DNA from: Myxococcaceae bacterium
Lineage (GTDB): Bacteria; Myxococcota; Myxococcia; Myxococcales; Myxococcaceae
Reading direction: 5' to 3'
Length of the DNA: 17,483 nt
NCBI GenBank assembly: GCA_004173515.1
Contig: SECN01000117.1
Location: 1-17,483 of the forward strand
Within the stretch, counting starts at the first letter, position 1; the number at the start of each line of letters is the position of its first letter. Position numbers and translations under genes: made by a program. The notes beneath the pieces are model-generated. The model was given only the letters and a program-made list of their open reading frames with translations, was not told the origin of the DNA and searched no databases. This document shows positions 7,980 to 13,047 of the stretch, one piece after another.

Positions 7980-9626
7980 TCAGGGTTTGTCAGCGGCGTG
8001 TTCTTTGGAGCCAGCAGGTCGTCTCGCACGCGCATCCGGGGACCAGATAAAGCCGATCCTTCGTGAACGCCGCTGGCGCAGCAGCCCCAGCAGCAGCGCG
8101 ATGAGCGCCCCCGACAACGGGCCTCCCGCCGCCTGACATCCGCCATCCGACCCCGACGGCTCCTGAGGCCTTCCGGCATCCCCGGAGCCTGCGTCCAGCG
8201 TGCCCGCATCCCCCGTCCCGGCGTCCACGGTGCCGGCATCCCCCGTCCCGGCGTCCATCCCGGCATCGGGCGGTGGAGGTGTCACAGGGGCACAGCCCGA
8301 ATCCTGCCCGGTGGCCGCGATGCACAGTTGGCCATAGCGCCCCAGGCCCTGCGTCCTTCCGTCCACGACGGCGACCAGGACCCGCGTCGCATCCCCCGCG
8401 GCCACCTGGGCACGCAGGGGCTCCGGGCTGGCCACCTGGACGACCCGCAGCACGGCGTCGTCGGTGACGGCCGCCACGAGCAGGGAGAGCGCGGCGAGGT
8501 CCGTGCCCGGCTCGGGCACATAGGACGCCGAGACGAAGGACGCGCCCCCCGCGACCTCGAAGTTGCGCGAGGACGCACCGGCCACCCGCACGGAGGCGAG
8601 CGACGTGGGCAGCGCCGAGGCGGTCGTCACCAGCGGCGCGTAGCCCTCTCCTCGCGCGTAGCCGTAACCGGGCGTCGCGCGCGCACCGGTGCCCAGGTTC
8701 CACGCGGTGAACTGCGCGAAGGCCGCATCGAAGGACGAGGCGAAGTCGCGGCGCAGACAGGTGTCCAGCAGCAGCGGCCAGTGCACGTCCGGCTGCCGCA
8801 CGGACTCCTCCAGCAGCGCGAGCAGGAGCGCATCCCCGAAGCGCTCGCCCGCGAACTGGAAGAAGAGCCCCGCGCCGTAGCTGAACCCCACCCCGGGACC
8901 GCTCGGATCCGTCAGCAGGCCGCGATCCGGGAGCTCCAGGTAGTAGTGGCTGAAGCCCTCCAGGTCATCCAGCGCGGGCTCGAAGCGTTCGGTGGCCCAG
9001 ACGGCGGTTCCCTCGGACGCGATGCTTCCCAGGTCGGGGCGGTACGCGGCCTGGACCGCGTGGAAGAACTCGTGGCTGGCCAGCGTCTCCACGGCCTCCA
9101 CGTCGGACGGGTAGTTGTAGCCCGTGAAGTCGTTCTCCTGGAGCATGTAGCCGGTGCAGCGCGTGGCGCCGTCCAGACAGGTCTCCATCCGGAAGGCACC
9201 ATCCGAGCGCAGCGCGAAGTCCACCAGGTACACGTCGAAGCGACCGTCGCCGCCGTTGTCTCCTGGCGTCGTCGCGTCGTCGGGCGGCAGGCGGAAGCCC
9301 AGGCCCTCGTAGAACGTCGCCACGCGTTCATAGGTGCGCCCGACGAGGTCCACGAAGTCGGGCACGCCATTGCCATCCGCGTCCGCCAGCGGCACCGCGT
9401 TGGGCCCCTGGCGGGTGAAGTGGACGCGGAAGCGATTGCCCTCGGAGACGGCGGACTCCACCGTCTCCGTCGGATCGAAGCGTGGCGCGGGCGCGGTGGC
9501 CGAGGTGGGCCGCCCGGACTCGGCGAGCCCCCACGGCACCGGCGCCACCGCCTCCTCGTGGAGGAGGCGGTGCGGAGTCCCCGCGCCGGTCAGCAGCAGG
9601 AGCAGTGCGGAAACCCCGGGGGCCAT
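7980..9626 (-). CDS. Secreted HExxH zinc metallopeptidase-like protein with a DAGT-repeat linker and a MYXO-CTERM-like C-terminal sorting motif.
   Basis: Within the long ORF 7980..10043 the real start is ATG 9626, giving MAPGVSALLLLLTGAGTP as a signal peptide. This ATG overlaps the upstream gene's stop as ATGA. The catalytic-looking motif is ASHEFFHAVQ, with a Glu about 17 aa downstream. The C-terminal linker is DAGMDAGTGDAGTVDAGTGDAG. This is followed by GCQAAGGPLSGALIALLLGLLRQRRSRR, which has the Cys, TM and Arg-cluster architecture of MYXO-CTERM. Confidence 0.7.
   Translation of the reverse strand: MAPGVSALLLLLTGAGTPHRLLHEEAVAPVPWGLAESGRPTSATAPAPRFDPTETVESAVSEGNRFRVHFTRQGPNAVPLADADGNGVPDFVDLVGRTYERVATFYEGLGFRLPPDDATTPGDNGGDGRFDVYLVDFALRSDGAFRMETCLDGATRCTGYMLQENDFTGYNYPSDVEAVETLASHEFFHAVQAAYRPDLGSIASEGTAVWATERFEPALDDLEGFSHYYLELPDRGLLTDPSGPGVGFSYGAGLFFQFAGERFGDALLLALLEESVRQPDVHWPLLLDTCLRRDFASSFDAAFAQFTAWNLGTGARATPGYGYARGEGYAPLVTTASALPTSLASVRVAGASSRNFEVAGGASFVSASYVPEPGTDLAALSLLVAAVTDDAVLRVVQVASPEPLRAQVAAGDATRVLVAVVDGRTQGLGRYGQLCIAATGQDSGCAPVTPPPPDAGMDAGTGDAGTVDAGTGDAGTLDAGSGDAGRPQEPSGSDGGCQAAGGPLSGALIALLLGLLRQRRSRRIGFIWSPDARARRPAGSKEHAADKP
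8173..8268. repeat. Tandem roughly 30-nt repeats, approximately ccggcatcccccgtcccggcgtccacggtg in three to four copies, encoding the DAGx linker of the protease.
   Basis: Imperfect direct repeats are visible in the sequence. Confidence 0.6.
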
Positions 9627-10752: not shown

Positions 10753-13047
10753 TCATGCGGAAGTGTCGTCCGGCTTCGGCGCATTGACGGTGGACAGGCG
10801 GGGTGCGCTGCCCGGGCCCAGCAGGCCCTGCATGGCGTCGAAGAGGTTGAGGTTGGAGCCGGTGGGGAGGAAGACGACCTTCTCCAGCCCTCCGACGACG
10901 GCGGCCTGGGCCTGGGCCGCGACGACGCGGACGAAGTTCTCCCCGCCGCCCAGCGCCTCCACGCGCTGGCGGAACTGGGACGCTTCCACCTCCGCGAGCC
11001 GGGACTGGCGCTCCACCTCCAAATCGTTGAGGCGCTGCTGGCGCTCCAGGGCCATCTGGAGGGTGAGGCGTTCGCGCTCCAGCTCCGCCTCGGAGCGGAT
11101 GCGGGAGGCGCGGGCGTCGGACTCGGCGCGGGCCAGGGCCTCCTCGCTCTCCACGCGTGCCTTCTCCAACTGCGCTTCCGCCTCCACCTTGGCGCGGCTG
11201 AGCGTTTCGAGCTGGTGGTTGCGGTTCTGCAATTCGATGAGCGACTGGCGCTCCGCCTCCGACTTGCGGTGGCTGGAGATGTCCGCCAGCTGCTTCTCCT
11301 CCTCGCTGCGGATGCGCTTCAGCTCCGCGGCGGCCTGCGCCTCCTGGCGCGAGGCGTCCAGTTGGATCTGGATGTTCGTGTCGATGGCCTCGCGAAGCTT
11401 CAGGGCCGTCTTCTCATCGACGGGGGCGATGTCCTTGATGTCGATGTCGATGATGCGCAGTTGGTTCTCGGAGAAGAGCCGGTCCTTGCGAGCGCGGCCC
11501 GCGTCGTCCATGCCGAAGATGGCGCGGCGGATGAGCACGCTGGCGTTCTTGTGGAAGGTCTCGAACTCGTTCTCCGCGGCCACCTGGCGGATGCGCGACG
11601 CGAGGTTCTCACACACGTAGCCGATGAAGTCGTTCACCCGGAAGATGGCCTTGTCCTTCTCCGGGTCGTCCTGCACGTCGAACTGCCACTTGTAGGAGAG
11701 CTTGATGCGCAGCCGCGCATGGTCGCGCGTGGCCACCTCGAACAGGTCCGTGGCGAAGTCCGGCCCCAGCCGCAGCATCAGCACCTTGAGCTGGCGGGGA
11801 CGCTTGGGCGTGCTGCCGGACAAATCCAACACGGTGACGTCCTCGTACGGGCGCAGCATCACCTTCGCGGGGCCAAACTCCACGCGCGCGTGGTTGCTCT
11901 CGAAGTCGTTGATGAGTACCGCGGTGTTGTCCTCGATGCGCAGCACGATGGCGCGCGTGCGGTCCCCCTTCTCCGGCACCGACGTGGGGCGCGGCGCGCG
12001 CACATCCTTCGTCTCCGGGGACGCGGTCGGCGGCGGGGACAGGCCCAGCAGGGCCTCCGCCTCCGGGGAGAGGCGCTTCTCGTGCAGCTCCTGGTGCGCC
12101 TCCGGCATGAACTGGCAGGGGCCCTGCACGAGCGTCACCTTGCCGGAGCGCAAATCCCTCACATACAGGCCCTCGCCCTGCCCCAATGACAGCGCGGCAA
12201 TCTCCTTGTGGATGAGCACCTTCTCGCTGGGCACGTAGGTGCGCGGGCCCCGGACGATCCACGTGTCGCCGGCCTTGCGCAGGCGGGGCTCACCGCCCTC
12301 CTCCTCCGTGAGGTCGTCCAGCGCCTGGAGCTTCAGGCCCTGCAGCTCCGACAGCACGTGCTTGCGGCGCACGTCGCCCTCCAGCGCCTCGCCGGGCTCC
12401 AGGAAGAAGACATCCGGACCGGAGACGACCTTGCGGCGGCCTTCCTGGATGCGACCGGTGGCGCGGTCCACCGGATTCAGGATGACGCAGTACTCGGTCT
12501 CCTTGAGGACGCGCGCCTTCTCCAGCGACTCGACGGAGACGGCCTCGCCGGGCACGTAGCGGCCGGGGCCGCGCATCAACCACTCGTCACCGGCCTCGCG
12601 GCGACGGGGGCCGTCCTTGGCGCGGTCATCCGTGAAGGCGGTGAGCGCGCGCAGGCGCAGCGCTTCCGACACGCCCAGCACGTACTCGGGGATGATCTCC
12701 CCTTCCAGCTCCTCCCCCGGGTACAGCGGGAACACCTTGGGGCCCACGCGGACCTCGCGGTCGCCCACCGCCACCCGGGCCTGACCGAAGTCGTCCAGCG
12801 CCACCTGGCCGTTCTCGCGCACCACGGGGTTGCGCACGACGCACCAGTTGCCGGCGCCCACCTCCACCATCCGCTCCTTGGCGGTGAGCGTCAGGTGCGC
12901 CTCCAGGGTCAGCACCCGGGGCCCCACCTCCATCAGCACCACGCCCCGGTTCGCGTCCTCGATGTAGGCGTACTCGCGATTCTTCAGGGAGATGCGCTGG
13001 ATGGCTTCGGTGCTGGGGAGGGCGGAAGGCACGGGACACCTGCTCAC
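10753..13047 (-). CDS. mvp: Major vault protein (MVP) homolog with vault repeat domains, an SPFH-like shoulder and a cap-helix coiled coil.
   Basis: The match to human MVP, recalled from memory, runs across the whole length. The N-terminus [24 protein letters not shown] aligns with [42 protein letters not shown] aligns with [36 protein letters not shown] aligns with [23 protein letters not shown]...[13 protein letters not shown]...[14 protein letters not shown] aligns with YCVILDPV...FFLQPGEQLEQGI...YVLSEQQGLLLRAL. In the shoulder, [41 protein letters not shown] aligns with [41 protein letters not shown]. A long EA-rich coiled coil follows, and the C-terminal [14 protein letters not shown] aligns with NLFNTAFGLLGMGPEG. 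The 13047 start is GTG. An alternative GTG at 13032 has an AGGTG four nt upstream. Confidence 0.9.
   Translation of the reverse strand: [764 protein letters not shown]

Follow-up and report, generated by a model that had tools for sequence, protein, structure and literature searches.

Major vault protein (MVP) homologs have been described in myxobacteria and cyanobacteria (PMC3762200; bioRxiv 10.1101/872010). As a lead to the function of these bacterial proteins, a conserved module of partner genes would have been of value. Our literature search returned no paper that treats the genes around bacterial mvp, and bioRxiv 10.1101/872010 contains no gene-context analysis. The stretch of DNA studied here, 17,483 nucleotides (nt) from a Myxococcaceae bacterium (contig SECN01000117.1 of assembly GCA_004173515.1, hereafter the window), carries one such gene, mvp, followed on the same strand by a lipoprotein gene and a gene for an HExxH protein. 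An earlier reading of the sequence, referred to here as the original prediction, proposed either that this pair is unrelated to MVP or that it forms a bacterial-specific vault-associated module, and named conserved synteny as the test. The synteny test backs the first alternative, and the lead is thereby removed. Positions 10741..7980 (minus strand) very probably form a self-contained operon in which a hmuY-like gene and an MXAN_6640-family gene are served by a Fur-type operator and a promoter of their own, and which lies beside mvp by chance in some Corallococcus. The operon is of a known, already annotated kind and not a new system; mvp is its neighbour rather than one of its genes, and MVP, predicted to be cytoplasmic, is probably unrelated to it in function.

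In Myxococcus xanthus, MXAN_6641 (a HmuY homolog) and MXAN_6640 belong to the same two families and are found in the same order, with an ATGA overlap and an upstream Fur-box-like motif, GAATATGAGAATCGTTATC. The M. xanthus protease is about 60% identical to that of the window and the HmuY-like protein about 50%. Both genes were co-induced in co-culture with prey (log2 fold changes of 2.57/2.47 and 2.38/1.64 at 2 h and 6 h), a condition in which the iron-uptake machinery was also upregulated (PMC9548883), and the supplementary tables of that study annotate the pair with a “putative Fur box”. A full-text search for MXAN_6640 returned no paper, the gene being listed only in these supplementary tables. 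The M. xanthus pair differs in that it adjoins an alkylresorcinol cluster, with mvp not nearby, in the sequence and length of its linker repeats, and in its protease N-terminus, which has the lipobox FGCG where the Corallococcus clade has TGAG.

The HmuY of Porphyromonas gingivalis shares with the lipoprotein of the window the HmuY fold (Foldseek probability 1.0 to 3h8t, 6ewm, 8b6a and 3u22), the PF14064 family and a lipoprotein anchor. Iron-responsive regulation, a property of P. gingivalis HmuY and the Bacteroidota hmu operon, is putative for the window pair and deduced from its Fur box. Unlike the hmu operon, the window pair is not accompanied by an adjacent HmuR-type TonB receptor gene or by hmuSTUV genes. 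In addition, the lipoprotein is paired with a metalloprotease, does not conserve the His/His haem ligands, has both a repeat linker and a further Cys-rich module at its N-terminus, and occurs in the phylum Myxococcota.

The protease resembles the M30 peptidases hyicolysin and lugdulysin by its HExxH motif with a downstream invariant Glu, by a fold match to lugdulysin and by a following PPC-like beta-sandwich. However, it is only 14% identical to lugdulysin and bears a MYXO-CTERM surface anchor, which is specific to Myxococcota. With the eukaryotic vault partners (vPARP/PARP4, TEP1 and vault RNA), the pair has nothing in common except adjacency to an MVP gene; it lacks homology to them, is predicted in the envelope and not in the cytoplasm, and is not conserved with MVP.

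Gene context of mvp and of the HmuY–protease pair

The GC content of the window is about 69%, and the locus reads on the minus strand, where three open reading frames (ORFs) lie head to tail with a coding-type GC content at third codon positions (0.87-0.94). These are mvp (13047..10753, 764 amino acids as the longest ORF, 755-766 in homologs), the HmuY-family lipoprotein gene (10660..9626, 344 amino acids) and the gene of the MXAN_6640-family HExxH putative zinc metalloprotease (9629 or 9626..7980, 548-549 amino acids). Exactly 92 nt (10752..10661) separate mvp from the lipoprotein gene, as had been stated. The original prediction placed mvp at the head of this tight co-directional cluster; the common direction stands, whereas the head position does not, because four more genes of the same direction (two GDSL lipases, a hypothetical protein and an RdgC-like protein) lie upstream of mvp.

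To place the arrangement in a wider frame, one genome per species from 185,579 species was scanned with an alignment of 15 bacterial MVPs, which yielded 80 MVP loci: 11 from Corallococcus, 12 from other myxobacteria and 57 mostly from cyanobacteria, with a few Chloroflexi and Actinomycetota metagenome-assembled genomes. The presence of the pair was judged by tblastn with the window genes. It was found downstream of mvp in 6 loci, all of Corallococcus (C. terminator, C. praedator, C. carmarthensis, C. exercitus SDU142, strain RDP092CA and C. aberystwythensis), and was absent from the other 74. Two further linked genomes, C. exiguus and strain ZKHCc1 1396, were found by look-up, giving eight besides the window. 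No pair was detected next to mvp in five Corallococcus loci (sp. CA053C, C. interemptor, C. exercitus AB043A, C. coralloides and C. sicarius), nor in any of the 12 other myxobacterial or the 57 cyanobacterial and other loci.

The manner of loss can be read from several Corallococcus loci. Between two C. exercitus strains, the difference is a clean 2.69-kb indel whose extent is exactly that of the operator, hmuY and the protease gene. In C. interemptor, the initial 9 nt of the operator, TCGATATTG, remain as a scar joined to the MYXO-CTERM-coding 3′ end of the protease gene; in C. exercitus AB043A, what remains of the protease gene is its last ~25 nt. The two deletions are independent, so that the pair was lost at least twice, mvp remaining intact. 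The position of the pair beside mvp is genus-level synteny in a rearrangement-prone spot. In strain ZKHCc1 1396, a DUF4096 gene (an IS5-type transposase fragment; L165 7723-7893) lies immediately downstream of the protease gene, which fits a rearrangement hot spot.

All-versus-all blastp clustering of the ORFs within ±6 kb of mvp in the 80 loci found no gene family conserved across genera apart from a histidine-kinase/response-regulator family. The latter forms the sole cross-phylum cluster, and its positions and strands vary. The remaining clusters reflect genus-level synteny in Corallococcus, Laspinema or Hyalangium. Since no neighbouring family is conserved beyond such synteny, gene context gives no clue to the function of bacterial MVP. 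The Hyalangium-type loci L008, L012, L015 and L016, and these only, have downstream of mvp, 50 nt to about 1.1 kb away, members of a small ORF family that share its direction and recur within each locus.

Starting from the pair, homologs of MXAN_6640 were found in Myxococcus, Pyxidicoccus, Stigmatella, Cystobacter, Archangium, Hyalangium and Polyangium. Most of these genera gave no MVP in either MVP search, and Myxococcus gave none; an M. xanthus genome with MXAN_6640 has the HmuY gene directly before the protease gene. Two genomes carry both mvp and the pair at separate places. Corallococcus sp. CA053C carries mvp on one of its contigs (L003) and the pair on a second (L082), which has the same operator and where homology to the window starts only 10 nt inside the mvp 3′ end. 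In Hyalangium versicolor, mvp is on contig 14 and the pair on contig 12. A metagenome scan with an alignment of the protease retrieved 80 loci, 60 of which have at least 900 nt upstream. A HmuY-like ORF on the same strand ends at the protease start in 52 of the 60, and lies within about 3 kb in 5 more. A hidden Markov model of MVP found no match in the 83 pair-bearing loci (719 kb in total). Several metagenomic loci also contain a second HmuY-family gene, convergent to the protease gene (L085 2019-2681, L086 3811-4713 and L089 9388-10128, minus strand); that of L086 matches Pfam HmuY at 2.8e-16.

The distribution bears directly on the proposal of a vault-associated module, in which the lipoprotein and the protease would act with MVP, for example in the surface display or processing of vault particles, and would be kept adjacent for that purpose. 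The tight co-directional order, the short gap in which no terminator was detected and the recurrence of the arrangement in eight other Corallococcus genomes are what such a module predicts. Nevertheless, the pair is missing from most MVP loci, has been repeatedly deleted beside an intact mvp, is unlinked to mvp in CA053C and H. versicolor, and behaves as a unit in genomes and contigs without MVP, including whole genera. Furthermore, the predicted compartments differ, with a cytoplasmic MVP and a pair at the cell surface, and so do the evolutionary rates, MVP being 92-93% identical between species against 58-73% for the pair. Together with the lack of any family conserved beside mvp across genera, these observations make a vault-associated module most improbable. 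The original prediction would have given up the module if related MVP homologs lacked these neighbours, which is what was found, or if there were distinct transcripts with a terminator separating mvp from the lipoprotein gene; no such terminator was detected.

The identity of MVP itself was confirmed. Its Pfam matches all exceed their cut-offs (MVP_shoulder 2e-45, Vault_2 9e-32, Vault 1.5e-31, Vault_3 6e-20 and Vault_4 6e-6), and the protein is 98% identical to the MVP of C. terminator and C. praedator and shares 35-41% identity with animal MVPs across 80-89% of its length. Its N-terminus, read directly, has no hydrophobic signal segment, in agreement with the absence of a signal peptide noted earlier. 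In C. sicarius CA040B, an mvp remnant (L023 10001-11045) is 5′-truncated and frameshifted, retaining only residues 419-764 in two frames, and directly abuts GDSL lipase genes; MVP therefore appears dispensable in at least one strain.

Operator, promoter candidate and cistron overlap

The palindromic operator-like site noticed in the 92-nt gap is real and non-random. It corresponds to a conserved block, CGATATTGAAAATGAGAATCGTTATCGA (10741..10714, minus strand), organised as a Fur-box-like array of NATWAT-like hexamers. Its 19-mer core, GAAAATGAGAATCGTTATC (10734..10716), matches 16 of the 19 positions of the Fur consensus GATAATGATAATCATTATC, and none of 200 dinucleotide shuffles of the window gave any match to this consensus with up to three mismatches. 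The site overlaps the -35 element and spacer of a sigma-70-like promoter candidate, TTGAAA-18 nt-AAGAAT (10736..10707, minus strand), which is the sole such match on either strand of the 5.7 kb between 7700 and 13400 (shuffle mean 0.2). An alignment of seven mvp-linked loci shows the block CGATATTGAAAATGA(G/T)AATCGTTATCGA to be invariant save for the one G/T position, whereas the flanking intergenic sequence diverges.

M. xanthus and the unlinked copy in Corallococcus sp. CA053C likewise have this motif upstream of hmuY, and Hyalangium has a degenerate version of it. Allowing up to four mismatches, 515 kb of myxobacterial loci contain 14 distinct Fur-consensus sites, 12 of which are upstream of hmuY-like genes; the box is conserved in 12 loci. 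The other two sites are upstream of a TonB-receptor (Plug-domain) gene of CA053C (L082 8032, minus strand), about 2.5 kb from the pair, and upstream of a DUF6607 gene (L083 7531, minus strand). The operator is thus probably the Fur box of the pair's own promoter, Fur being the regulator suggested by the motif, and a Fur box of this kind argues for regulation separate from that of mvp. The DUF6607 gene of L083 is convergent to the Hyalangium protease gene, and the Fur-consensus site upstream of it hints at iron regulation of DUF6607. A 344-amino-acid gene convergent to the pair in other Corallococcus was considered as a counterpart of this Hyalangium-type gene and rejected, as it has no Pfam match.

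An SD-like (Shine-Dalgarno-like) AAGGTG lies 7 nt upstream of the hmuY ATG, and both are conserved among the mvp-linked loci. At the junction of the two cistrons, ccGTGATGgcc, the TGA stop of the lipoprotein gene (9628..9626) overlaps the protease start, which is either GTG 9629 (4-nt GTGA overlap) or ATG 9626 (1-nt overlap). The GTG option aligns in register with the ATGA found in M. xanthus and Hyalangium. Hence the start-stop overlap claimed for the window exists, with letters other than the ATGA first given. An NTGA overlap is kept across the family, as ATGA (M. xanthus, Hyalangium and several metagenomic loci) or as GTGA or TTGA, and the suggestion that the two genes are translationally coupled holds as a plausible one. 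Beyond the protease gene, a GC-rich hairpin of 13 bp (7919..7947) lies between it and the convergent ORF 6273..7856 (plus strand). Its RNA fold of -36.8 kcal/mol (z = -3.0) was equalled by 2 of 200 shuffles, and it is likely the end of the transcription unit.

The two proteins and their predicted role

The lipoprotein matches the Pfam HmuY family (PF14064) at 3.7e-11, with 43.8 bits against a cut-off of 27. A profile built from 21 of its homologs matches PDB entries 8b6a, 8b61, 3h8t, 3u22 and 6eu8, all HmuY-family structures. A signal peptide with a lipobox (LAAGG|C33) is followed by a small Cys-rich module, a (DAGTTT)n linker and, at the C-terminus, a domain of the HmuY fold. The latter is modelled by AlphaFold with a predicted local distance difference test score (pLDDT) above 90, and the top 12 Foldseek matches in the PDB are all of the HmuY family (probability 1.0, template-modelling (TM) score 0.5-0.66 on the target). 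The lipobox and the repeat agree with the DAGT-repeat lipoprotein described before: Cys33 is invariant among 24 homologs, every homolog is a lipoprotein with a variable low-complexity linker, and Tandem Repeats Finder (TRF) delimits the DAGTTT repeat as 8.3 copies of an 18-nt period (10291-10436). The Cys-rich mini-module (CNGDECVDAFDCRDKG...CNADNACEL; window 10480..10560, residues ~34-66) is located between the lipobox and the repeat linker and is modelled as a small beta hairpin (pLDDT 82-93). Among the aligned homologs it is found only in Corallococcus, and L110 has a different Cys-rich insert.

The second protein matches the NCBIfam model NF045524, “MXAN_6640 family putative metalloprotease”, at 2e-71 (241 bits against a cut-off of 140). 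A short signal peptide precedes an M30-like catalytic domain, which is followed by a PPC-like beta-sandwich, a (DAGTG)n linker and a MYXO-CTERM signal; TRF places the repeat of this second linker at 8173-8257. The earlier description of a MYXO-CTERM HExxH protein is borne out, since the motif HEFFH (H185-E-F-F-H189) is invariant in 18 homologs, as are E205 and E213, and two MYXO-CTERM models are passed (TIGR03901, 21.1 bits against a cut-off of 20; TIGR03382, 20.3 against 15.85). The MYXO-CTERM sequence, GGCQAAGGPLSGALIALLLGLLRQRRSRR, contains the Cys motif (with G496-C497 invariant), the transmembrane helix and the Arg-rich tail. This tripartite architecture and its myxosortase and type II secretion system (T2SS) route to the cell surface have been described (PMC11980579). 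From their lipobox and MYXO-CTERM signals, both products are predicted to be envelope-targeted, as was proposed. At the N-terminus of the protease (window 9570..9626), the lipobox (xGCG) of other MXAN_6640 members is replaced by LLLLLTGAG in the Corallococcus clade, which seems to have lost the N-terminal lipid anchor and kept MYXO-CTERM as the one anchor.

The most likely role of the operon is to acquire iron or haem at the cell surface when this metal is scarce. When iron is sufficient, Fur-Fe2+ would bind the conserved hexamer array over the -35 element and spacer and repress transcription; when iron is limiting, as in competition with prey, the operon would be derepressed and its two cistrons, given their conserved GTGA/ATGA overlap, would be translated in a coupled manner. 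The HmuY-like protein would be exported, lipidated at Cys33 and held off the membrane by its flexible DAGTTT linker, while the protease would be exported and anchored at the surface through MYXO-CTERM by the published myxosortase/T2SS route. At the surface, the protease would probably degrade extracellular or prey proteins, and the HmuY-fold lipoprotein would capture a released ligand for uptake, most plausibly haem or another iron-bearing compound. The tight coupling of the HmuY-like/MXAN_6640 pair across Myxococcota, together with a Fur box in Myxococcaceae-type genomes, is the modest positive outcome of this analysis and makes it reasonable to consider the pair a candidate for acquiring iron or haem during predation. 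It is possible, though doubtful, that the HmuY-like lipoprotein and the M30-like MYXO-CTERM protease represent, independently of MVP, an uncharacterised Myxococcota-wide protease-plus-haemophore system for prey iron.

A number of observations weigh against, or set limits to, the reading of the locus as an independent, Fur-controlled operon for iron or haem acquisition. The eight linked genomes and the two scars are consistent with ancestral adjacency, so that the pair appears to have adjoined mvp in the ancestor of Corallococcus. No terminator was found in the 92-nt gap by a consensus scan, and its RNA fold is not better than that of shuffles (z = -1.1), hence read-through from mvp is possible in the window strain. 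At distant pairs (~40% identity), no convincing Fur-consensus match was found upstream, which limits the deduction of Fur control to Myxococcaceae/Archangiaceae-type genomes. Neither His nor Met is invariant in the HmuY-like domain, where H304 and M290 reach about 90% conservation; the His/His pair with which P. gingivalis HmuY ligates haem is accordingly not retained, and any binding of haem is putative. The protease matches no Pfam peptidase family and, by profile search, no PDB chain, the fold search being the only informative one. Its model (pLDDT 78) is closest to the M30 lugdulysin (7bb8, E 6e-5, 324 aligned columns, TM score 0.51 on the target) and then to a collagenase PPC domain, and from this modelled likeness its proteolytic activity is putative. 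Finally, MYXO-CTERM is not at the extreme C-terminus in the window, where ~25 residues follow the Arg-rich end (RQRRSRR). The proteases of relatives end 0-15 residues after the Arg cluster, and the longer tail is due to a strain-specific replacement starting at window position 8084.

Some of these points would be expected if the pair were an independent envelope operon unrelated to iron or haem, its palindrome being bound by another regulator, such as a Zur- or PerR-type Fur paralog, and its HmuY-fold protein binding another ligand, presenting substrate to the protease or inhibiting it. The absence of invariant haem ligands and of Fur-consensus matches at distant pairs fits such an operon, as does the lack of the usual HmuY partner, a HmuR-type TonB-dependent receptor, next to the pair in the window. 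In addition, haem ligation and binding differ among HmuY-family members (PMC12106395). However, the match of 16-17 of 19 positions to the Fur consensus with its hexamer-array organisation, the same motif upstream of the TonB-receptor gene in L082, and the induction of the M. xanthus orthologs, with their putative Fur-box annotation, alongside iron-uptake genes make a role apart from iron unlikely.

The possible read-through also raises a coupling specific to Corallococcus, in which transcription from mvp would co-express the surface protease and the HmuY-like protein with vault-like particles. If true, it would link bacterial vaults to iron or haem scavenging during predation; we regard it as very unlikely, and retain an operon under its own Fur-type operator as the preferred reading.

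Neighbouring genes and a strain-specific segment

Directly upstream of mvp, the two GDSL-lipase genes are tandem paralogs (13189..14118 and 14085..15029, minus strand), a pair that is variably present or relocated among Corallococcus loci. A GC-rich hairpin read from the sequence follows the proximal lipase gene (~13140-13170), which suggests that mvp has its own promoter.

At the other end of the locus, a segment of ~1.9 kb (6147..8084) is without counterpart in L001 and L002, the nearest genomes, whose identity over the remainder of the window is ~92-93%. Its breakpoint falls inside the MYXO-CTERM-coding region of the protease gene, and the segment holds the ORF 6273..7856 (plus strand), which encodes 527 amino acids without a Pfam match.

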